Of a stretch of DNA of 50,340 nt, positions 12,051 through 30,397 are shown one piece after another. The translations under genes and the position numbers were made by a program. The notes below the pieces were generated by a model. It was not told the DNA's origin. It worked only from the letters and a program-made list of their open reading frames with translations, and ran no database searches. Source of the DNA: Synechococcus sp. (GTDB lineage Bacteria > Cyanobacteriota > Cyanobacteriia > Thermostichales > PCC-7336). The first letter of the stretch is position 1, and each line of letters opens with the position of its first letter. Location of the stretch: contig JBFRWD010000115.1 of assembly GCA_051439425.1 (NCBI GenBank), positions 1-50,340 on the forward strand, written 5' to 3'.

Positions 12051-12461
12051 GGAATAAGATCGCCTTTATATGCAAATCTGAACCCAGACTGAATTAAACA
12101 ATGTTGGCCTGCATACAGCTGCGTATTCATGGAACGAAAGCAAACATTAGTAATAATTCTTTGAAAATACAATGCTATACAAGGGATTCATATTATCATT
12201 AAAACCTAGGCTAATTTGATTGAAACTATACAACGTAGTTCAAGGATTTATTTTAGTTTTCAATAGTTGCGAGTCTATTCAGCCCAATGATAGTCTCTCA
12301 TTCTTTAGATGCAGGCATCTTGGCAAATAAATATAGGGGACAGCTAAATCCTTGATTTGCCTGAAAAAGGCTAGTAGATTCTCCGTGGCTGACTGCAGAC
12401 AGCTATAGTTCAGAACGACCGCTTAGTTTGATACATCGATATTAGTGTGCGTGCATAAAAC

Positions 12462-15257
12462 ATGTTTTCTCAAGTCTCAGAGCGCTTCATGCATCGGCTT
12501 CAATGGATTTTAACCACCGGCTGGTTGCTAACTATTGGTTCCCTGTTTTACGATCCCTGGACAGCATCATTAACAGTAGAAAACCATCCCTGGAGTCCGC
12601 TCAGCATATCCAGCGAGTGCATTCAATTGCAAGGACAATGCCTTGAGCAGAGCCCATATGCCATTGGTGCAACAGTATTCTGGGGTGCTGTGGTACCCTC
12701 CGGGATCTTTATTTTGCTTGTCTTCGGGCACGAAGTGTGGAGGCGTATTTGTCCCCTCTCTTTCCTGTCTCAAATTCCACGTGCTTTAGGAAAGCAGCGC
12801 CAGCTCAAGCGAGTGAACGAGAAAACAGGAAAAATTCGGTTTGAGATAGCAAAGGTCAAATCTGACTCGTGGCTTGGGCGCAACTACCAGTACCTTCAAT
12901 TCGCTTATTTATTTATCGGTATCTGTGGTCGTATTCTTTTTTTTAATGCAGATCGTCTAGTTCTGGGTAGTTGGCTTCTGTTGACTATTGTTGCTGCGAT
13001 ATCGGTGGGATACTTCTATGGCGGTAAATCTTGGTGCCAGTATTTCTGCCCAATGGCTCCCGTACAAACTGTGTTCAGCGAGCCAAGAGGCCTCCTAGGT
13101 AGCAAAGCGCACATGAGTGAAAGTCGTATTAGTCAATCTATGTGTCGCACGGTAACCCCTGAGGGGGAAGAGCAAAGTGCATGTGTTGCCTGTCAAAGCC
13201 CATGTTTTGACATTGACTCCGAGCGCACCTACTGGGATGGCCTACAGGATCCTCAGGAATTGAGGATTCGCTTCGGCTATCTGGGTTTATTGACGGGCTA
13301 TTTTGTCTACTACTATCTCTATGCAGGCAGTTGGGATTACTACTTCTCGGGGATATGGAATAGAGATCCAAATCAATTGTCTTCTCTAATGAGTCCAGGT
13401 CTTTATCTATTTGGTGAGCCCATTAATATCCCTAAATTGTTTGCTGTGCCAATCGTTCTTGGAGCATTTACCTTTGCTGGGATGGCTTTTGGTCTCTTCA
13501 TAACCCGTCGAGCGGAAGCTCGGTATCAGAGTAGCCTCACAAAAAGTCCATATCTCATAAAACATCGCCTATTTATCCTGACAACATTTTTTGCATTTAA
13601 TATCTTCTTCCTATTTGCTGGAAGGCCACTCTTACAGCTAACCCCACTTTGGTTCCAGTTTTTGTTCGATAGCTTGATTGTGTTTGCCAGTACTCTCTGG
13701 CTATGGCAGAGCTGGGATCGTAGTCCGCCTCAATATAATCGCGAAAATCTGGCAAACCGTTTGCGTCGCAAGCTAGAAAAACTAGACCTAAATATCGACA
13801 ACGTTTTAGAGGGTCGTGCCTTAGACGCTCTCAATGCTGATGAGATCTTTGTCTTGGCTAAGGTGTTACCAGACTTTACTCATAAACAAAAACACCAGGT
13901 CTACAAAGGGGTTTTGCGCGATGCTTTAGCTGAAGGCTATGTCAGCAGTGCCAGTAGTCTTTTCGTGCTTCGACAGATGCGGAATGAGCTTTCAATTTCT
14001 GACAACGAGCACCAAGAGGTATTGGAAGAGTTAGGCGTAGAAGACCCGATCGTACTGAATCCTGATGTCCAGCATTCACTAGAAAATCAGGTTCGACTCA
14101 GTGGCTATCAGCGTTCTCTTGAGCGCTTGATACGGGTGCAACGAACTCAGAGTAATTCATCCACTGTCGAGTCCTCACCCAATGCCGCAGAAACCATGCA
14201 ATCGCTCCGGCGTGAATATTCTGTCTCGTTTCAAGAGGAAGAATGGGCTTTAACGGATCTCAATGCTGAAGCAATCCCAAAGGCTGAGGATTTGTTAACG
14301 AGGCTGAAGTGGTGGTTGGACTGTAGTAAGTCGTTGTCCGCTCCAACTTTACAAGACCATAAAGTGGTTTTGCCTATAGTTCAGGATGCGGTTTCACGAA
14401 AGCAGGAGATTATAGTGCGTGCACTATTAGAGCTTCTACCTGCTCTTCCTAAAGCGTCCGAGGCAGAAGCTGTTTTCCTCGAACTGAATCAGCTCACTCC
14501 CCCATCACTCAAAGATAAAGATCTTCTGGATGAATTATCCTGGGTTAGTTCGAAGACTGAGTCTGTGAGAGAGTCCCTACCCCAACCACTATCCGAGAAT
14601 TCAGATATACCGGTTGAGCCACCTGTCTCGGAAATAATTGAACACTTACAAAGGCTGCTCCAACATCCACGGTCATTGGTTTCAGCCGTGAGCCTATTTC
14701 TTTTGGCTCAACTGGATCTGAAACTAGCCATCGAAGACGCTCAGAATCTTGCCACTGCCAACACCAAGTTAATTCGCGATACCTCAACCCAGTTGATGGC
14801 GATTCAGAATCTACCTCTACTGAGCCAATTTCCTACTCTTGAGAAGTGTGTCTATCTGCACAATAGTGACTTTTTTAATGGCCTTGACTCCGCCACTTTG
14901 ACTACATTATCTGACCAGGCTGAAGTTAGAACCTACGCCCAAGGTGAAGCGATTACCGAGCCAGGAGATACCTGCAGGGAACTATTAATTTTGATGGAGG
15001 GAGAGGCAGACATACATTATCAAAATGCTGGCAATAGTCGGGTTGAGCAATTACATCCCGGTCAAGCTCTTGATGAGCTAGAAGTGCTAGGTCATTGTGA
15101 GTTCGAAAATCGTATCCTAGCAGTCGGTAATAGTACTCGAGTATTAGCTGTACCCGTTGATGCGTTTGATAGCTTAATCGAACTGGATGCGGACTTTGCT
15201 CGCCGTGTTTTAGATTTAGAAAGCCAACGTATTCAGCAGCTTATGCAAGCAAAATAG
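12462..15257 (+). CDS. polytopic membrane 4Fe-4S-binding (NapH/FixG-like) protein with C-terminal cyclic-nucleotide-binding domain
   Basis: WRRICPL, WCQYFCPM, CVACQSPCFDID; many TM helices; C-terminal SDFFNGLDSATLTTL...GEAITEPGD...LMEGEA...PGQALDEL cNMP-like fold. Confidence 0.85.
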   Translation: MFSQVSERFMHRLQWILTTGWLLTIGSLFYDPWTASLTVENHPWSPLSISSECIQLQGQCLEQSPYAIGATVFWGAVVPSGIFILLVFGHEVWRRICPLSFLSQIPRALGKQRQLKRVNEKTGKIRFEIAKVKSDSWLGRNYQYLQFAYLFIGICGRILFFNADRLVLGSWLLLTIVAAISVGYFYGGKSWCQYFCPMAPVQTVFSEPRGLLGSKAHMSESRISQSMCRTVTPEGEEQSACVACQSPCFDIDSERTYWDGLQDPQELRIRFGYLGLLTGYFVYYYLYAGSWDYYFSGIWNRDPNQLSSLMSPGLYLFGEPINIPKLFAVPIVLGAFTFAGMAFGLFITRRAEARYQSSLTKSPYLIKHRLFILTTFFAFNIFFLFAGRPLLQLTPLWFQFLFDSLIVFASTLWLWQSWDRSPPQYNRENLANRLRRKLEKLDLNIDNVLEGRALDALNADEIFVLAKVLPDFTHKQKHQVYKGVLRDALAEGYVSSASSLFVLRQMRNELSISDNEHQEVLEELGVEDPIVLNPDVQHSLENQVRLSGYQRSLERLIRVQRTQSNSSTVESSPNAAETMQSLRREYSVSFQEEEWALTDLNAEAIPKAEDLLTRLKWWLDCSKSLSAPTLQDHKVVLPIVQDAVSRKQEIIVRALLELLPALPKASEAEAVFLELNQLTPPSLKDKDLLDELSWVSSKTESVRESLPQPLSENSDIPVEPPVSEIIEHLQRLLQHPRSLVSAVSLFLLAQLDLKLAIEDAQNLATANTKLIRDTSTQLMAIQNLPLLSQFPTLEKCVYLHNSDFFNGLDSATLTTLSDQAEVRTYAQGEAITEPGDTCRELLILMEGEADIHYQNAGNSRVEQLHPGQALDELEVLGHCEFENRILAVGNSTRVLAVPVDAFDSLIELDADFARRVLDLESQRIQQLMQAK

Positions 15258-22385: not shown

Positions 22386-24731
22386 CTAGCTTGATGCTTG
22401 CATCTGGGCTATTGCATTTCGTATGCCTTTGGCGACATCGGCCCAGGCGCTATCTCGGTCATCCCAACGCGTAATGGGCTTAATATTTTTTGGAAGTGCT
22501 TGAAGCTGTGAAAAAGGACTGCTTTGCCAGTCGCATTCTCTCAAGATGACTGGTATCACTAGTGTCTTACCTGTTTCCCGGCGCTCAAGTGCTCGCTCGC
22601 CTTCCTTTTCGTAGCAGTAATCAGAAGCGATGAAGTCGGCGCTGATTAGGAGCAAGACGATGTCTGCTTGTTCGAGGTTGGTGTCTATTTCATCTTTCCA
22701 TTCGTCTCCAGCAGTGATGCGGCGATCGTGCCAGGGAGCGATGTGGCCTTCCCGTTGCAGTAGCTTGAGATGAGTCTCAAGCTGGTCGCGTAGTGCTTCG
22801 TCTTCGTGGGAGTAGCTATAGAACAGTTTGAGGGGAGCATTGGGCATGGGGGGCAAATCCACTCCTTCTAAGAGTTCTTGAACGTTTAGTCTCTGGGTTT
22901 TGCCGTCGACTGATTTAGGGATGATTTCAATGCCATCTCGTTTGAAATCACGGAGTTCGTTGTAGTCCAGTGCAATTTCTGGATGACCTGGAATGGGGAC
23001 TTGCTCGGCAGGCTTGAAGCTGAAGCTGCTGTGGATGCGCTCGAAGTCATAGCGGATTATGGCTAGCAGTTCTTGTCTCGTGCCAATCGGCCCGTCGATC
23101 GCGATATCAATCCGTTTGTTGCTGCGATCGCTTACGACTAGGGCACGGTTGCCGTTCTTTTTTAGGATGACTCCAGTGCGCCAGCGGACATTGATATCAG
23201 TACTGAGGGGATAGGTGCGGGTGATGAAGCGGGGGATGATGCCTGCGGGGAGGATGGTGGGGTATTGGAATTGGAAGTTGAGACAGGCTTCGAGGTTGAA
23301 GGTTTCTGCTTCGGAGGGTTGTTGTTTGTCGAGTAGGTCGGTAACAAGATAGCGAGTCTCACTTTCGTCGATGCGAAAGGCAAGTTCGAACTTTCGCATT
23401 AGTTCTAGCAAGAAACCGTAGCGATCGGTTGGGTATTCGTCGCGATCGAGGATTTCATCAAGCTTGTCTAAAAGTAAGTCTCCTTTGCAATTGGATAGTC
23501 TTTCATCGTTGAGGATGGTGTAAATACCATTCGTGACCCAGTGGGGGTTTAGTATTTGAGTGTCGCGCAGCCGAGGGTCTTCACGATAGTTGAGAGAGAT
23601 ACCCAGTTGATGAAGGATGTTAGCGAGTGAGTTTTGCTTGTCTGTTTCGGGTTCTCCATTTTCTTGACATAGTTGTCTGAATCGCTCGAATGATATGAAG
23701 TTTTCAGGCATCTCCGCCAAGTAGTTTTTGACGTTAAACCAACTACCAGGAAATGGAATTCGTAAATTTTCTAACTGGTCAGTTTCTTCTGCGATCAGGT
23801 TTTTAAGTTTTCCAATATTCCTACCATGTGGATGTTTTCCATTGCCATTACTACAGTCCGTTTCGATGAAATGACGAATATTGGGAAACTTTTGACATAG
23901 GTAGCTGCGATTGAGGTTGAAAGCGATTTCAGAAAACTTGTTAAGGACAACAATGACTGGGGAGTTGCGACCAAAGCTTCGAATTAAGTTTAGCCAGTAT
24001 TCTGCATCTTCATCCTCGTGGCCTTGGCGTCCGTTTAGAACTAGTAGATAGAGGCTACGCTCGGTGAGGAAGAATTGGTGGGTGGAGTGCATGATCTCCT
24101 GGCCACCAAAGTCCCAGATGTTGAGTCGAATATCTTCCTCAGGATGAATTTGGATGGGCCATTCAGTGATATTGATGCCGTCAGTAACGGCTTCAGAAGG
24201 ATTGAATCTTCCATCAATTAAACGATTTACTAGAGAGGTTTTTCCAACTGCACCAAAGCCTACAAGAATTAGTTTTCCCTCGTTTAGAGGGCTACTACCA
24301 TAGTTGACTAATGAAAAGTAGTAGTTGAGAATATCTTTTGGGCTTGCTGCTGCTTTGTTCAAAAAACTATATACCTCTCTGAATGTTGGCCCTAGAATCT
24401 CTGACGGAATATGTAATTTTTCATTGCCATGGAGATAGATCTCCTTCAAAGACCTTAACTGTCCTAGAAACTCCGGCAGCTTGTCCAATTGGTTGTTCTG
24501 GAGGCATATCACGTCTAGAGATCTCAATTTTCCTAGAGACTCCGGGAGTTCACTCAATTGGTTGTCCTGGAGGTGTATTCTCCTCAAAGAAGTCAATAGT
24601 TTTATGGAGTCTGGTACTTTTTTTAGGCTTAATCCACTCAGATCTAGAAAAGATGAATTGTTTTTGAGACCGTTAATAATTCTTGTTTGGGCTCTTTGAA
24701 ATCCAAGAACGCTATCTTCCATTCCCATCAA
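22386..24731 (-). CDS. Roco protein: LRR-Roc GTPase-COR-TIR
   Basis: About 4 23-aa LRRs; Roc G1 GFGAVGKTS, G3 WDFGGQE, THQFFLT; COR (SWFNVK, ILNPHWVTNGIY, FELAF, WRTGV); TIR LFYSYSHED...WHDR...ADIVLLLISADFIASDYCYEKE. Confidence 0.93.
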   Translation of the reverse strand: MMGMEDSVLGFQRAQTRIINGLKNNSSFLDLSGLSLKKVPDSIKLLTSLRRIHLQDNQLSELPESLGKLRSLDVICLQNNQLDKLPEFLGQLRSLKEIYLHGNEKLHIPSEILGPTFREVYSFLNKAAASPKDILNYYFSLVNYGSSPLNEGKLILVGFGAVGKTSLVNRLIDGRFNPSEAVTDGINITEWPIQIHPEEDIRLNIWDFGGQEIMHSTHQFFLTERSLYLLVLNGRQGHEDEDAEYWLNLIRSFGRNSPVIVVLNKFSEIAFNLNRSYLCQKFPNIRHFIETDCSNGNGKHPHGRNIGKLKNLIAEETDQLENLRIPFPGSWFNVKNYLAEMPENFISFERFRQLCQENGEPETDKQNSLANILHQLGISLNYREDPRLRDTQILNPHWVTNGIYTILNDERLSNCKGDLLLDKLDEILDRDEYPTDRYGFLLELMRKFELAFRIDESETRYLVTDLLDKQQPSEAETFNLEACLNFQFQYPTILPAGIIPRFITRTYPLSTDINVRWRTGVILKKNGNRALVVSDRSNKRIDIAIDGPIGTRQELLAIIRYDFERIHSSFSFKPAEQVPIPGHPEIALDYNELRDFKRDGIEIIPKSVDGKTQRLNVQELLEGVDLPPMPNAPLKLFYSYSHEDEALRDQLETHLKLLQREGHIAPWHDRRITAGDEWKDEIDTNLEQADIVLLLISADFIASDYCYEKEGERALERRETGKTLVIPVILRECDWQSSPFSQLQALPKNIKPITRWDDRDSAWADVAKGIRNAIAQMQASS

Positions 24732-24956
24732 CCGGCAAGATGCCGTTTGTTTGCCTACAACAGCCTTAAATTTAATCCCTGTCTACTCAAATTGTCATCG
24801 TGATCGCCGATTCTTCCAGTTTAAACAACACAGCCATGGCCAATTGTCGTCATGGCGATCAACTACCCAGTTAAGACGGTAGTGGAAATGGCGATCATCG
24901 TCCTAACCTACTTCATCCCAGGCAAACCCACAGCCACCCTCCCGAGTGATCGCATC

Positions 24957-25004
24957 CAATACCTCGATTATTCACCGATCGCACGGTGAATAATCGAGGT
25001 ATTG
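24957..25004. repeat. perfect 21-bp inverted repeat with 6-nt spacer
   Basis: CAATACCTCGATTATTCACCG-atcgca-CGGTGAATAATCGAGGTATTG. Confidence 0.95.
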
Positions 25005-25077
25005 AGGATGAAAGCAACCCTCTACAGCAGCTCCGCTACACTACGGATACGATTCGGGTTATTCATCGAGCACTTCC

Positions 25078-25269
25078 ATGAACAATGCCAGCAACCCAAC
25101 CGGTTCAAACGTAAGCGACGATTTAGAACGCCAGATCGGTGAAATTTTTCTCGAAATCGACGCTGCCGATCGCCGCATCCAAGCAACCCAAACCGACATC
25201 GATCGCCTAAGAACCGAAACTCAAGCGATCCTGCACGACCTGAAAGCATCCACTGCCCATGCTGGCTAA
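25078..25269 (+). CDS. small coiled-coil hypothetical protein
   Basis: 63 aa with heptad-like LERQIGEIFLEIDAADRRIQATQTDIDRLRTETQAILHDLK; overlaps the next start codon. Confidence 0.65.
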   Translation: MNNASNPTGSNVSDDLERQIGEIFLEIDAADRRIQATQTDIDRLRTETQAILHDLKASTAHAG

Positions 25270-25402
25270 GCTTCTGGGATACGCTACCCGGCTCCTTGCA
25301 CTCAAACAACAAACCGAACGGAATATTGCAGAAATTCGCGAGCTGCGCCAAGAAGTCAAAACCTTGGCATAAATCGTTCGTCAACTCCAAACCGAAAACC
25401 AG
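25259..25402 (+). pseudogene. small coiled-coil protein, probably truncated by in-frame TAA at 25370-25372
   Basis: MLAKLLGYATRLLALKQQTERNIAEIRELRQEVKTLA*IVRQLQTENQ; the heptad pattern continues across the stop; ATG overlaps the upstream ORF by 11 nt. Confidence 0.5.
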
Positions 25403-25675: not shown

Positions 25676-26179
25676 ATGGTTGATACCCTGTTGCCTCCGC
25701 TGAACAACCACAACCTGCCGTATCCCGACACCATTCACCCCATCGTGGTGCACTTCGTCATTGCAATGGTGCTGTTTGCCGTCACGTGCGATGCCATCGC
25801 CTATTTCACCAACAACTCGCGCCTACAGGAAGTGGGCTGGTGGAATATGGTCTTTGCAACCGTATCGATATTCGTCGCGATTATTTTTGGCCAGATCGAA
25901 GCAGGGCTATCCATGCCCTATGCGGCAGCAGTGGCAGATTTAAACTTGCATACCCTGCTGGGATGGTCGCTCTCCGGCGTCCTAGCCGTCATTACGGGCT
26001 GGCGCTACGTCCTCCGCTTGCAAGGGGCAGCGCGGCTACCCGCCGCCTATATGGGGGTCAATGCCGTCTTGGCCCTCATCGTCCTGTTCCAGACCTACCT
26101 CGGAGATAAATTGGTGTGGATCTACGGCCTGCATACCGAGGCCGTTGTGGAAGCGACCAGAGGGGGATTGTTGCCGTAA
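25676..26179 (+). CDS. DUF2231-type membrane protein
   Basis: GGAG RBS; TIHPIVVHFVIA, LHTLLGW, GDKLVWIYGLH; about 4 TM helices. Confidence 0.85.
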   Translation: MVDTLLPPLNNHNLPYPDTIHPIVVHFVIAMVLFAVTCDAIAYFTNNSRLQEVGWWNMVFATVSIFVAIIFGQIEAGLSMPYAAAVADLNLHTLLGWSLSGVLAVITGWRYVLRLQGAARLPAAYMGVNAVLALIVLFQTYLGDKLVWIYGLHTEAVVEATRGGLLP

Positions 26180-26817
26180 TGTTGCCCTATCCGCTAATGG
26201 CCGCAGGCATCAATGGATTACCCTACGGCTTGCCCATCCATCCCAACCTCGTTCACCTCACACTAGGGCTGTTTATCGTGGCGATCGCCTTCGATATCGT
26301 TGCTAGTTTTTACGTCCTAGAAAAGCCATTATTCAAGTTTTTGGCCATCCCCGTTTCCCGCACCGGACTTTACGATGTGGGCTGGTACAACATGGTCGCC
26401 GCCGCCATCATCACCTTCTTTACAGTGGCAGCCGGTTTCTACGAAATACTGCTGGCCGATCCTCCCCAAGACATGCTCAGCCCTTGGGGCCTGAGCGCTC
26501 GCGACACTATGGTGTGGCACGGCGTTGGTGGGGTGCTGTTGCTGGGGTTGATTGTGGGCATGACGATTTGGCGAGGACTGCAACGCTATCTCTGGCGGGA
26601 AGACCGAGGCCAACAGGTGGAATGGAATTATTTGTTTGCCGGACTATTTATCTTTGTGCTGATGTTTGCCCACGGCACCCTAGGAGCTCATTTGGGCAGT
26701 GATTTTGGGATTCACGTTACAGCCGATCGCTTAATCCGAGAGGGGATCGATTCCAATACTCCCATCGAGGTTTCGCTCAATGATGGACCCACCGCACCGC
26801 AACTGATGGTCGATTAA
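26179..26817 (+). CDS. DUF2231-type membrane protein (second copy)
   Basis: TAATG stop/start overlap; PIHPNLVHLTLG, VGWYNM, WHGVGG, HGTLGAHLGSDFGIH. Confidence 0.85.
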   Translation: MLPYPLMAAGINGLPYGLPIHPNLVHLTLGLFIVAIAFDIVASFYVLEKPLFKFLAIPVSRTGLYDVGWYNMVAAAIITFFTVAAGFYEILLADPPQDMLSPWGLSARDTMVWHGVGGVLLLGLIVGMTIWRGLQRYLWREDRGQQVEWNYLFAGLFIFVLMFAHGTLGAHLGSDFGIHVTADRLIREGIDSNTPIEVSLNDGPTAPQLMVD

Positions 26818-26968
26818 TAGAGCGATGGCTTACTGATTGGAGTTGGCTTTGACAAGCCACGTTACCCCGATGGTTTAGACCGCAGTTCGAGACGCCCGAC
26901 CGAGGCACTTAAACGACCTCGTATCTAAACCGAACTCATAGCTCACGCAACCTTACCAACCGCGACGC

Positions 26969-27901
26969 ATGGTCAATGACACCCAACCCCGATCCCCGGG
27001 CCAATTGTTAACCCGTCGGCAAATTGCTTGGCTAGTTGGACTGGCGATCGCCAACCTACTGGTCAGTTTGTGGATGGGGCAACAGGCCTACAAGTGGATG
27101 CCCGCTCAGGCATCGGCAGAAGCCGTGCTGGTGGATCGTCTGTTTAGCTTTTTTACAACAGTAGGCACTTTTATCTTTCTGGGAGTGGTTGGTACTCTGC
27201 TCTACTCCATGATTTTTCAGCGAGCTGCCAAATACGATGCCAGCGATGGTCCTGCAATTGAAGGGAACGTCACTCTGGAGGTCGTTTGGACGACCATACC
27301 GATTCTGTTGGTGATTTGGATTGCGACAGCTAGCTATCAGACCTATCACCAGATGGACATTCTGGGTCCGATTACCCCCCAAGCCTCAACCGAATCGGCA
27401 ATAACACCGGTCAGCGCCACCTCCCCCGCAGAGACTCAACCCATTGAAGTGCGAGCTCGGCAGTGGTCCTGGGTGTTTTACTATCCCGACTCCGGCATTA
27501 CCAGCACCGAGCTACACCTACCTGTTAACCAGCGAGCCCATTTCAAGCTCACCTCTGACGATGTCCTGCACGGCCTATTCGTGCCTGCATTTCGCGTTAA
27601 GCAAGACATCGTGCCCGGCAAAGTGATTGATTTTGCCTGTACGCCAACACAAGTGGGGCGCTATCCCCTACGAGATTCTGAATACAGCGGCACCTATTTT
27701 GCGGCCAATCAAGCTTATGTCGTGGTCGAAACTGCAGAAGACTATCAGCAATGGCTTGCCTCTGCCGCTCAGACCTCCCCCACACCGGCCCCTAACCGAG
27801 CATCCGAAGAATTCGACACCGCCTCTCAACAAACCACAGGTCTTCGCTGGTCCACAGTCACGCCTGCGCCACCCCCAGTGGTGAATTACTCAGCCTCGTA
27901 A
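26969..27901 (+). CDS. ctaC: heme-copper oxidase subunit II, ARTO type (CtaCII, no CuA)
   Basis: LEVVWTTIP, ARQWSWVFYYP, SDDVLHGLFVPAFRVKQD; the CuA motif CxExCGxxHxxM is replaced by DSEYSGTYFAAN. Confidence 0.92.
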   Translation: MVNDTQPRSPGQLLTRRQIAWLVGLAIANLLVSLWMGQQAYKWMPAQASAEAVLVDRLFSFFTTVGTFIFLGVVGTLLYSMIFQRAAKYDASDGPAIEGNVTLEVVWTTIPILLVIWIATASYQTYHQMDILGPITPQASTESAITPVSATSPAETQPIEVRARQWSWVFYYPDSGITSTELHLPVNQRAHFKLTSDDVLHGLFVPAFRVKQDIVPGKVIDFACTPTQVGRYPLRDSEYSGTYFAANQAYVVVETAEDYQQWLASAAQTSPTPAPNRASEEFDTASQQTTGLRWSTVTPAPPPVVNYSAS

Positions 27902-27943
27902 TCACTCATCTTCTTGACGCGATCGCTCATCGAGACACTTGCC

Positions 27944-29632
27944 ATGACCAACCCCTCCCTAGAGCTCCCTTCAAATCCACCATCTCCAGAGTTTCAGCAG
28001 CCCCAATCCCCCGAGAACTGGAGACGATTTTTTAGCTTCAGCACCGACCACAAAGTCATTGGCATCCAGTACATCGTCACGGCCTTTTTCTTCTTTCTGG
28101 TCGGTGGGCTGCTGGCAATGGTGATGCGCGGCGAGCTGATCACCCCCGACTCAGATCTGGTCGATCGCACGGTCTACAACGGGCTGTTCACCATGCATGG
28201 AACGATCATGCTGTTCCTGTGGACATTTCCGATGCTGAACGGGCTGGCTAATTATTTAGTGCCCTTGATGATCGGGGCCCGAGATATGGCGTTTCCCCGC
28301 CTGAATGCCGCAGCGTTCTGGCTCGTACCGATATTTGGTGTCATCTTAATCGTCAGCTTTTTCGTGCCCGGTGGTCCCTCTCAGTCAGGGTGGTGGGCTT
28401 ATCCTCCCGTCAGTTTGCAAAATCCCACCGGTCACTTAATTAACGGCCAGTCCTTGTGGATCTTGGCAGTTGCTCTCTCGGGAATTTCATCCATTATGGG
28501 GGCGGTCAACATTGTCACCACTATCTTTAGGATGCGCGCCCCAGGAATGGGGTGGTTCAAAATGCCTGCATTCTGTTGGACGGTGTTCGCTGCCCAGATC
28601 ATTCAGCTATTTGGCCTGCCAGCCCTGACAGCGGGTGCAGTTATGCTGCTGTTCGATCTCACATTGGGTACTTCCTTTTTTGAGCCCAGTCGTGGCGGCG
28701 ATCCGATCCTCTACCAACACTTCTTTTGGTTCTATTCCCACCCGGCTGTCTATGTCATCATCCTGCCTATTTTTGGGGTGTTTTCGGAAGTGTTTCCGGT
28801 CTATGCCCGCAAGCCTTTGTTTGGCTACAAAGTGGTGGCGCTTTCTTCTCTCATCATTACGGGGCTGAGCGGCATTGTTTGGGTGCATCACATGTTTGCC
28901 AGCGGCACAGCAGGGTGGATGCGTATGTTGTTCATGTTCACCACCATGACGATCTCGGTCCCGACAGGGATTAAGGTATTTGCCTGGGTGGCGACAGTGT
29001 GGGGGGGAAAGCTGCGACTGACTTCAGGCATGCTATTCGCTCTGGGGGGTCTATTTACCTTCTTATTTGCCGGCATTACCGGAATTATGTTGGCCTCAGC
29101 CCCATTCGATATTCATGTCAACAATACGTATTTCGTGGTGGGGCATTTCCACTACGTGATTAACGGTGCCGTGGTGATGGGATTTTTTGCGGCTATCTAC
29201 CACTGGTTCCCCAAGATGACCGGCCGCATGTACTACGAAGGGCTGGGGAAGCTTCACTTCTTGCTGACCTTCTTAGGGGTCAATCTCATTTTTCTGCCCA
29301 TGCATCCTCTGGGATTGCATGGGATGCCCCGACGGGTAGCGTCTTACGATCCCGAGTTTGCGTTTTGGAACGTGATTGCCAGTTTGGGTGGCTTCTTGCT
29401 GGGGGTGTCAATTTTGCCGTTTATCTTGAACATGCTGAGCTCTTGGACTCGTGGCGATGCTGCTGGTGATAACCCTTGGCGAGCCATTGGCTTGGAGTGG
29501 TTAGTGTCGTCCCCACCCCCCCACGAAAATTTCGAGGACATTCCGGTGGTGCTGTCGGGGCCATACGGTTACGGCAGCGGCGAGCCCTTGGTGGAGATCC
29601 AAGGTGCCCCAGATGGCCAGATAGAGCCGTAG
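27944..29632 (+). CDS. ctaD: heme-copper oxidase subunit I, ARTO type (CtaDII)
   Basis: STDHKVIG, FTMHGTIM, DMAFPRLN, FWFYSHPAVY (A2-type), WVHHMF, VVGHFHYV, GMPRR. Confidence 0.95.
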   Translation: MTNPSLELPSNPPSPEFQQPQSPENWRRFFSFSTDHKVIGIQYIVTAFFFFLVGGLLAMVMRGELITPDSDLVDRTVYNGLFTMHGTIMLFLWTFPMLNGLANYLVPLMIGARDMAFPRLNAAAFWLVPIFGVILIVSFFVPGGPSQSGWWAYPPVSLQNPTGHLINGQSLWILAVALSGISSIMGAVNIVTTIFRMRAPGMGWFKMPAFCWTVFAAQIIQLFGLPALTAGAVMLLFDLTLGTSFFEPSRGGDPILYQHFFWFYSHPAVYVIILPIFGVFSEVFPVYARKPLFGYKVVALSSLIITGLSGIVWVHHMFASGTAGWMRMLFMFTTMTISVPTGIKVFAWVATVWGGKLRLTSGMLFALGGLFTFLFAGITGIMLASAPFDIHVNNTYFVVGHFHYVINGAVVMGFFAAIYHWFPKMTGRMYYEGLGKLHFLLTFLGVNLIFLPMHPLGLHGMPRRVASYDPEFAFWNVIASLGGFLLGVSILPFILNMLSSWTRGDAAGDNPWRAIGLEWLVSSPPPHENFEDIPVVLSGPYGYGSGEPLVEIQGAPDGQIEP

Positions 29633-29785
29633 CTCACGCAACTGTAATGGGACGAGATTTACACTCGCCTCAGCCCAGCCATTCCCTTGCTTTCTGTTGG
29701 AAACAGGCAATGAGACCTCAGGGCAGAGGAGTTTGCTGAAGTCAGGACCGCTTCATTCGCCAAGAACCCCTATCACCTAGACGTT

Positions 29786-30397
29786 ATGACAGTATCTGAC
29801 CCCACTCTCAATCCGGAATCGCAGCCGTCTGTAATGCCACATGCCGAGAGTCATGAAGAAGACTTTCGGATGTTCGGCTTTATTGTTTTTCTGCTGTCGG
29901 AAAGTGTTATCTTCCTCAGCTTTTTTACTGGTTACATCGTCTATAAACTCACGGCGACTGACTGGTTACCAGCCGGTTTTGCAGGGCTAGAGGTACGAGA
30001 TCCCTTCATCAATACCGTTGTGCTGGTTTCGAGTAGCTTTGTGATTTACTTTGCAGAGCGATTCTTAAGGCGAGAGAACCTGTGGGGGTTTCGCCTATTT
30101 TGGCTGTTGACGATGGCCATGGGTAGTTACTTTCTGTACGGGCAGGCGGTGGAGTGGATGAGTTTGCCGTTCGGATTTAGGGACGGTGTGTTTGGCGGTA
30201 CGTTTTATTTGCTCACGGGTTTCCACGGTTTGCACGTTCTGACAGGAGTGTTGCTGCAAAGCATTATGCTAGGCCGTTCGTTTATTCCAAATAACTACGT
30301 CGGGGGTGAGTTCGGTGTCGAGTCTACATCCTTGTTTTGGCATTTTGTCGATGTGATTTGGATCGTGTTGTTTCTGTTGATCTATGTCTGGAAATAG
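29786..30397 (+). CDS. ctaE: heme-copper oxidase subunit III (CtaEII)
   Basis: FLLSESVIF, NTVVLVSSS, TGFHGLHV, FWHFVDVIW. Confidence 0.93.
   Translation: MTVSDPTLNPESQPSVMPHAESHEEDFRMFGFIVFLLSESVIFLSFFTGYIVYKLTATDWLPAGFAGLEVRDPFINTVVLVSSSFVIYFAERFLRRENLWGFRLFWLLTMAMGSYFLYGQAVEWMSLPFGFRDGVFGGTFYLLTGFHGLHVLTGVLLQSIMLGRSFIPNNYVGGEFGVESTSLFWHFVDVIWIVLFLLIYVWK

Follow-up and report, generated by a model that had tools for sequence, protein, structure and literature searches.

Introduction

Roco GTPases have been studied mainly for LRRK2 and Parkinson's disease, and their bacterial members are structural models without known output. The closest described systems are those of Kaur, Iyer, Burroughs and Aravind (eLife 2021, PMC8195603), who presented leucine-rich repeats (LRRs) joined to an AP-GTPase (Roc), COR and one of at least 24 C-terminal effector domains, TIR included, as counter-invader systems, several copies of which are often found in a single bacterium. 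Such systems have been linked to prokaryotes with a multicellular habit (PMC7159879, PMC8195603). Here we analyze an LRR-Roc-COR-TIR gene (Roco-TIR) found in a stretch of 50,340 nucleotides of Synechococcus sp. DNA (GenBank assembly GCA_051439425.1, contig JBFRWD010000115.1), referred to below as the window.

The gene does not differ in kind from the AP-GTPase class: it has the same fast-evolving LRRs, Roc, COR and variable effector, in this case a TIR, together with the same patchy spread, and just as several copies with different effectors occur per genome in that class, this genome has a second, non-TIR Roco. The published study is computational only; the relocation of an aspartate from G4 to G5 and the clade structure reported below were not met with in its main-text description, although its source-data tables may list the family. 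The immune role of Roco-TIR proteins is already published as a prediction and this copy is mainly one more example; the point beyond the published catalogue is the clade-wide relocation of the aspartate, a concrete clue to nucleotide binding in such switches.

The Rocos of Chlorobium tepidum (3dpu, 6hlu, 8r4b) and Methanosarcina barkeri (Roco2, 4wnr) are strongly homologous to the protein across LRR-Roc-COR, sharing the P-loop, switch II and both COR halves; they have canonical G4 and G5 motifs and no enzymatic C-terminal effector, whereas our protein has N-K-F-S, T-D-C and a TIR. With GTP the C. tepidum Roco is monomeric; free of nucleotide it dimerizes through COR-B, and its affinity for nucleotide is micromolar (Wauters 2019, PMC6337361); the available part of that article gives all prokaryotic Rocos then known as LRR-RocCOR only and does not mention TIR. 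Judging from the homology, the same nucleotide-dependent monomer/dimer cycle probably applies here.

Bacterial STAND/NLR-like proteins such as Avs and bNACHT also combine, in one gene, repeats for sensing, an NTPase as switch and an effector fused to them. The logic is the same, although the NTPase is a STAND AAA+ ATPase there and Roc with COR here, making these systems analogous and not homologous. In plant TNLs and in Cat1 a TIR is tethered to a sensor/oligomerisation module, as in our protein, with a STAND ATPase or a CARF domain in place of the Ras-like GTPase. The protein shares the TIR fold and an S-x-[WY]-C...E segment with the NAD+-cleaving TIR enzymes (NADases) AbTir (7uwg, 7uxu), Cat1 (9mud), SARM1, RPP1 and Roq1, but these have C-x-x-E where it has C706-Y-E-K-E710, one residue more, and its NADase activity is predicted from sequence. 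TIR NADases require self-association, as established for SARM1, AbTir, plant TIRs and Cat1. As for Thoeris, the TIR strongly matches the N-terminal half of the PADLOC ThsB1 profile (7.2e-61, 204 bits); however, in Thoeris the effector gene adjoins the TIR gene, while here no ThsA or other effector is adjacent and sensor, switch and TIR form one polypeptide.

We favor, with a probability of about 0.55, the reading that this is a stand-alone, GTPase-gated TIR NADase sensor, horizontally acquired and belonging to the prokaryotic Roco (AP-GTPase) conflict class, in which a ligand would act through the Roc-COR switch to juxtapose TIR domains that cleave NAD+. The LRRs would bind an invader-derived or stress-derived ligand, and binding would shift the nucleotide and oligomer cycle of Roc-COR; the COR-B domains, and with them the TIR domains, would be brought together, the juxtaposed TIRs would form a composite active site and cleave NAD+, and the infected cell would stop growing or die. 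If this is true, the Roc-COR switch gains a measurable read-out (NAD+ loss, growth arrest, cell death), and a GTPase-based class is added to the ATPase-based (STAND/NLR) single-gene immune sensors.

Domain architecture

The gene is an intact open frame of 781 codons on the minus strand of the window (22386-24731), ending in TAG. Pfam matched LRR_14, LRR_8 and LRR_4 at residues 29-108, Roc at 153-266 (E 1.5e-29), COR-A at 328-467 (6.8e-39), COR-B at 482-623 (4e-28) and TIR_2 at 637-745 (8.3e-17), the values for the Roc-COR-TIR domains being far beyond chance; a linker of only about 10 residues leads from COR-B to the TIR. Against the PDB, the Roc-COR part matched M. barkeri Roco2 (4wnr, 3.4e-83), the C. 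tepidum Roco (6hlu, 4.5e-70) and LRRK2 (~1e-26), so that both the Pfam and the PDB matches give the Ras-like Roc directly followed by COR that marks the Roco class. The NTPase is Roc, and no STAND (NACHT or NB-ARC) ATPase core was present among the Pfam and NCBIfam matches of the protein.

The full-length AlphaFold2 model, built with 26 aligned sequences, has a mean predicted local distance difference test (pLDDT) score of 82.9 and displays an N-terminal helix, four LRR beta strands (residues 28-30, 51-53, 74-76 and 97-99, that is, four repeats), the G domain, both COR halves and the TIR, while a model of the TIR only (34 sequences) reaches 91. An earlier, sequence-only reading of this DNA had proposed a sensor-switch-effector protein of LRR-Roc-COR-TIR type; this architecture is borne out by strong Pfam matches for every domain and by confident models, and the strings that it quoted, YSYSHED (residue 638), SDYCYEKE (703) and LNKFS (263), were all found in the translation.

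Proposed relocation of an aspartate in the Roc domain

A search of the protein collection gave 4,909 matches at E <= 1e-10 among 7,999 scored candidates, and the query plus its 119 best non-self matches, all of which align through the TIR motifs, made up a 120-row family alignment; the nearest relative is 61% identical and most are 48-58% identical. In this family G1 (GxGxVGKTS), the switch I threonine (T183) and G3 (WDFGGQE) are essentially invariant. G4 is not of the NKxD type, its fourth position being an aspartate in only 1 of the 120 rows, whereas the C. tepidum and M. barkeri Rocos have N-K-I-D at G4 and S-C-K at G5 in the PDB alignment. The description of G4 (NKFS) as degenerate in the sequence-only reading is correct for this protein, but it does not reflect decay of the copy, being common to 119 of the 120 rows and paired with a change of the G5 serine to aspartate. 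Thus, of the canonical motif set G1 and G3 are present and NKxD is not, a clade-wide variant that gives no ground for exclusion from the Rocos.

In Ras the G4 aspartate binds the N1/N2 edge of guanine and the G5 serine hydrogen-bonds that aspartate. From the alignment we infer that the specificity carboxylate was relocated from G4 to G5 (T-S-C to T-D-C) and not lost; given this relocated carboxylate, nucleotide binding is expected to be kept, via an altered pocket.

A FastTree tree was built from the Roc-COR part alone (78 rows; unrooted, with local support values only and no bootstrap). One starred clade of 35 rows held 31 of the 34 TIR-type rows, with at least seven phyla intermixed, and the TIR label changed 6 times over the tree against a mean of 25.7 when shuffled. 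The distribution of the G4 and G5 states is given in Table 1.

Table 1. States of G4 and G5 in Roc-COR rows inside and outside the TIR clade (number of rows).
Group	Rows	G4 Asp absent, G5 Asp	G4 Asp absent, G5 Glu	Asp at both	NKxD with T-S-C	Other
TIR clade	35	33	1	1	0	0
Outside the clade	44	2	0	0	40	2

The two outside rows with the swap are locus L047, the first branch next to the clade, and a misaligned row of the genome's own paralog; a single starred branch of the unrooted tree separates all 36 real acidic-G5 rows from the 42 others. Four clade members with tails other than this TIR also carry the swap, and on this comparison it is tied to the Roc-COR lineage and not to the TIR itself; NKKD and T-S-C persist in two Nostoc Rocos (L078, L083) that acquired a different TIR. 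The swap is probably one event kept through deep divergence, so that kin rows are not independent. In the available parts of the literature, which was not searched exhaustively, we found no description of it.

The only other COR protein of the genome is a 960-aa LRR-Roc-COR protein without TIR (contig C154, locus L002 1-2883), with a tail of ~250 aa without annotation after COR-B; read by eye, its G4 region is V-V-A-T-H-G-G and its G5 region V-D-S-K, neither canonical nor the swap.

The TIR domain

Residues F637, S639, Y640, D644, G675 and S703 are invariant in the 120-row alignment, and C706 and E710 are both kept in 119 rows, while the position of E708 is Glu in 53 and Asp in 49 rows; E710 is also kept in all 34 TIR domains taken from genome loci. 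A profile of these 34 domains matched Cat1 (3.3e-9), TLR TIRs, Arabidopsis AtTIR and AbTir, and in its alignments to Cat1, AtTIR and TLR15/2 the family has one extra residue just before E710, which is thereby paired with the Glu that is catalytic in Cat1 and AtTIR; a single-sequence alignment to AbTir pairs E708 instead. Because of its conservation in the family and its placement by the profile, E710 is taken here as the putative catalytic residue. The sequence-only reading had put a catalytic Glu in SDYCYEKE; a Glu is indeed conserved there, but it is the last one, E710, and not E708.

Foldseek returned 43 PDB matches at E <= 0.001 for the TIR model, including the NAD-cleaving RPPT-TIR, RPP1, SARM1, Cat1, SPARTA and AbTir; the best by both TM-score and root-mean-square deviation was 7uxu_A, the substrate-analogue-bound active AbTir filament (TMq 0.67, TMt 0.77, 2.8 A). 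Sequence and model together point to a TIR of the NAD-cleaving kind, apparently catalytic. A prediction of a two-copy TIR complex, run without controls, scored 0.00, and nothing was drawn from this result.

The ThsB1 model matched only four places in the whole genome, Roco-TIR with 209 bits and the next with 89 and 84; since the 4.8-Mb genome has 17 TIR_2 sites, the model is subfamily-specific. Several of these 17 sites lie in open frames of 450-930 aa, one frame has an internal TGA and another has two; the genome's TIR repertoire is large.

The same TIR subfamily is found in short proteins of 85-273 aa (929 matches at <= 1e-10 among 956 candidates), many of them evidently Roco fragments and some fused to EAD1, EAD7 or WD40; a closer relative of this copy than those in the family alignment, the 80% identical fragment P0122, came from this search. 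It is moreover the C-terminal domain of ~365-aa proteins on cyanobacterial plasmids, adjoining NB-ARC and TPR genes on Acaryochloris pREB8 and CHASE2, DUF928 and CHAT genes on a Calothrix plasmid. These fusions to EAD adaptors and the NB-ARC and CHAT neighbors argue for an effector role of the TIR, and on this pattern the domain looks more like a reusable effector module of NTPase-switch conflict systems than like part of a Thoeris-type signalling pair.

Distribution and acquisition

Scanning one genome per species confirmed 609 relatives among 620 pattern matches, of which 80 loci were kept; simple calling of open reading frames (ORFs) gave a Roc-COR ORF in 76 of them, and in 33 the same ORF ends in this type of TIR. 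The 33 loci belong to Cyanobacteriota, Acidobacteriota, Bacteroidota, Planctomycetota, Verrucomicrobiota, Nitrospirota and a Nealsonbacteria bin; the earlier statement that such architectures occur in cyanobacteria is true of this family, which the scan and the tree also place in other phyla.

Close to home the gene is rare. No full-length ortholog was found in 30 related genomes (3 of the same genus, 3 of the same family, 23 of the same order and 1 of the same class), where the best matches were Roc-COR-only proteins of 32-36% identity. Among 300 genomes drawn evenly from the phylum, with at most three candidates scored per genome, 38 had a Roc-COR relative at <= 1e-60, a single one had a close full-length TIR-type homolog (59% identity, residues 55-778) and three more had distant ones (31-35% identity). 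Phage records gave no match to the gene, and although 35 plasmid records matched, none of them covered at least 80% of the query; carriage of the clade by plasmids or phages was rejected on these grounds.

Related Rocos carry swapped tails: Pfam assigned those of 41 proteins to PNP_UDP_1 (3), MCU-like (2), other TIR_2 (2) and EAD7 (2), with no match in 32. Together with the LRRs, the AP-GTPase and COR, this variable effector places the gene in the counter-invader class of Kaur et al., and the distribution, the tree and the varying length of the LRR region give the family a sporadic, horizontal-looking spread. The GC content of the gene is 0.459 (LRR part 0.395, Roc part 0.429), against a mean of 0.530 (standard deviation 0.035) for the genome's ORFs of at least 400 aa, which puts it at the 4.9th percentile. 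By these sequence data the gene is accessory and probably horizontally acquired, and its evolution resembles that of immune genes, given the lack of an ortholog in relatives, the rarity, the mixed-phylum clade, the low GC, the variable LRR region and the swapped C-terminal modules.

Neighborhoods of the homologs

Around the 33 Roco-TIR loci we compared 477 neighboring ORFs. No neighbor is conserved in a fixed position; the largest cluster comprises 7 loci at positions scattered from -8 to +10, and a conserved operon partner was therefore rejected. In L031 and L041 (Pyrinomonadaceae) the gene lies between PrkA and DUF444, genes that are normally adjacent partners, so that it may have been inserted into a conserved operon; its place in L033 and L040 is between TilS-HPRT and argB-argF. 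The neighbors also include, here and there, an IS110 transposase, a resolvase, RelE, PIN, Uma2 and a MoxR-vWA pair. Since no neighbor recurs and the contexts differ between loci, Roco-TIR is a solitary, mobile unit.

Weighing of the explanations

Several observations weigh against our preferred reading. Non-enzymatic TLR and MAL adaptor TIRs match the TIR model about as well as the NADase TIRs do, and with the G4 aspartate absent, guanine binding is an assumption. None of the ten nearest neighbors of the gene in the window matched a PADLOC model, these neighbors being mostly ordinary metabolic genes. Around the homologs, 27 of the 234 neighbors within four genes (14/118 and 13/116) had a PADLOC match at <= 1e-8, a count without a background rate, and most of these were generic (AAA/FtsH-like, kinase, cyclase, ABC ATPase, TPR, sigma-54 activators); specific-looking defense genes stand beside Roco-TIR in about 6 of the 33 loci. 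Among them, L058 (Verrucomicrobiaceae) has a complete Septu pair (12432-14275; PtuA 4.5e-74, PtuB 5e-49) directly downstream on the same strand, L094 an AbiL/HEC-01A-type ATPase near the gene, and L026, L028, L045 and L078 PADLOC candidate families. Pfam searches of the two nearest genes on each side (120 proteins) returned mainly housekeeping functions, different between loci. The defense-island check proposed in the sequence-only reading has thus given no clear signal, enrichment being neither shown nor excluded; the conserved housekeeping contexts that it named as contrary evidence were not found either, the neighbor genes differing from locus to locus. We found no experimental test of a bacterial Roco-TIR, or of any bacterial Roco in defense, in the literature searched, where the idea stands as a computational prediction. 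On balance, the NLR-like, GTPase-gated view is supported as to the architecture and an apparently catalytic TIR by sequence and models, and remains the most likely one; the idea is not new (PMC8195603), and the neighborhoods give no clear support.

The TIR might instead generate a signal, as ThsB does, with a nucleotide of the cyclic ADP-ribose type acting on an effector encoded elsewhere in the genome. The very strong, subfamily-specific ThsB1 match speaks for this, as does the report that numerous bacterial TIRs act by signalling, with about 30 effector types at the receiving end (Yirmiya et al. 2025, bioRxiv 10.64898/2025.12.03.692087), the available part of which does not mention GTPase or LRR fusions; the genome also holds one DUF4231/SLATT gene. 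This gene, however, is on another contig and not near any TIR site, the sole SIR2 of the genome (SIR2_2) is part of a PNP-SIR2 fusion, and no SLOG/STALD (PF18185) match was found in the genome, a weak point as the profile matched no control genome either; a Thoeris-type partner was rejected on these results. Thoeris effectors adjoin the TIR gene, yet no neighbor is conserved in the 33 loci and none beside our gene matches PADLOC, so that the ThsB-plus-effector operon of Thoeris is not seen, and no ThsB structure appeared among the sequence or fold matches; we regard such a signalling role as unlikely. Of much the same low probability, in our judgment, is that the protein is no anti-phage device but a switch of host cell fate, serving growth arrest under stress, kin discrimination or programmed death in filaments. 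Housekeeping or regulatory genes in the window and at most homolog loci, the lack of a clear defense-island signal and of matches in phage records, and the link of these systems to multicellular prokaryotes (PMC7159879 and PMC8195603) would agree with it. A regulator, though, would be expected to be conserved in the genus, whereas the three same-genus genomes and 27 further relatives have no ortholog; in addition, unrelated phyla share one clade, the insertion sites differ in related genomes, and both the number of LRRs and the effector are variable, as they are in immune receptors.

The state of the copy itself also has to be considered, for it could be impaired: a decaying remnant with a truncated sensor and relaxed constraint, in a family that is functional as a whole. 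Of the 310 columns with at least 90% conservation it deviates at 41, more than any other of the 120 rows (median 8, next-highest 32), has only four LRRs, contains an insert of seven residues that nearly all other rows lack, lost its LRR part in the automatic gene call, and has the longest end branch (0.61 against 0.09-0.30 in its sisters) of its cyanobacterial subclade (11 rows, support 98). But 15 of the 41 deviations are merely missing LRR repeats, and the 26 substitutions (among them K182V, D272N, G305N, F525K, E526N, R554E and E597K), like the rest, touch no nucleotide-binding or TIR motif residue; the region before the P-loop, of 157 aa, is the fifth shortest (range 94-590, median 346), so that four members of the family have even shorter ones; the whole frame is open and both models fold confidently. 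An outlying position is moreover expected of the query, since the other rows were selected by their similarity to it and group with one another. We read the copy as divergent but intact, and its impairment as improbable. A variation on the GTPase-gated sensor, which we hold to be quite unlikely, concerns the nucleotide: the swapped pocket might bind xanthine or inosine nucleotides, ATP or an alarmone, or exchange nucleotide very fast, coupling the TIR to a nucleotide pool changed by infection, with the short LRR as a second input. If the swap does change the nucleotide bound or the tightness of binding, these receptors would not be ordinary GTP switches.

Gene call, coordinates and genome setting

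The public gene call (P0002, 658 aa) begins at an internal TTG (24360-24362, residue 124) and lacks the whole LRR region, probably owing to the 39.5% GC of that part. Relatives have an N-terminal cap and LRRs to which residues 1-125 align, and these residues fold likewise in the model, for which reason the long, LRR-containing form is preferred; the start codon is probably the ATG at 24726-24728. The features of the gene are collected in Table 2.

Table 2. Features of the Roco-TIR gene and its upstream region (positions in the window).
Feature	Position	Strand	Basis or remark
Whole gene LRR-Roc-COR-A-COR-B-TIR, 781 aa	22386..24731	-	TTG at 24729-24731, TAG stop 22386-22388
Promoter-like site ATGACA, 18-nt spacer, TAAATT	24769..24798	-	38-67 nt 5' of the start; consensus match only
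N-terminal cap helix (residues 4-24) and four LRRs	24357..24731	-	Pfam and model
Roc (Ras-of-complex) G domain, residues 150-320	23772..24284	-	Pfam and PDB homology
P-loop G1, G158-F-G-A-V-G-K164-T-S166	24234..24260	-	G, G, G, K invariant in 120/120 rows
G3/switch II, W206-D-F-G-G-Q211-E-I	24093..24116	-	Kept in 118-120 of 120 rows
G4, N264-K265-F266-S267	23931..23942	-	NKxD Asp absent, likewise in 119/120 rows
G5, T291-D292-C293	23853..23861	-	D in 118, E in 2 of 120 rows; canonical Rocos T-S-C
Seven-residue insert G296-N-G-K-H-P-H302	23823..23843	-	Gap in 118/120 rows at most columns (113-119 across the seven); pLDDT < 50
COR-A domain, residues 328-467	23331..23750	-	Pfam
COR-B domain, residues 482-623	22863..23288	-	Pfam; forms the dimer interface in the C. 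tepidum Roco
TIR domain, residues 634-781	22389..22832	-	Pfam, PADLOC, profile, fold
Codon of E710, Glu aligned with the catalytic Glu of Cat1 and plant TIRs	22602..22604	-	Conservation and profile

Promoter-like sites are no more frequent in the upstream region than in shuffled sequence. About 225 nt 5' of the start, two arms of 21 nt form a perfect inverted repeat around a 6-nt loop, without a T-run (24957-25004); blastn-short detected it nowhere else in the 4.8-Mb genome. A 122-aa ORF further upstream (25022-25390, minus strand) was considered as a co-transcribed partner and rejected as probably spurious, with no Pfam match and an odd composition. More gene-like are two overlapping small ORFs of 63 and 37 aa on the plus strand (25078-25372), coiled-coil-like, perhaps the two parts of a single small gene with a frameshift; the 63-aa ORF had no PADLOC match.

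On one flank are genes for a LysR regulator, an SDR, a MatE protein, a fatty-acid desaturase and a 2OG-Fe dioxygenase, the last convergent with the Roco gene and ending 10 bases from its stop codon. The other flank has two tandem DUF2231 membrane-protein genes followed by a COX2-COX1-COX3 operon (25676-30397), a stretch that may include an accessory terminal oxidase cluster, since the first DUF2231 protein was not found in relatives. Searches of three genomes of the same genus and one of the same family did not recover the flanking dioxygenase and DUF2231 proteins; the region around the gene thus seems variable as a whole by this comparison, and an empty insertion site is not definable. The window contains no tRNA genes.

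Elsewhere in the genome, a 640-aa PNP_UDP_1-SIR2_2 fusion (contig C156, locus L015 1384-3306, minus strand; PADLOC candidate PDC-M60C, 5.4e-36) looks like another predicted conflict effector. Within the window, a 931-aa protein (12462-15257, plus strand) has a C-terminal cyclic-nucleotide-binding domain (823-907) as its sole Pfam match, its first 800 residues being unannotated.

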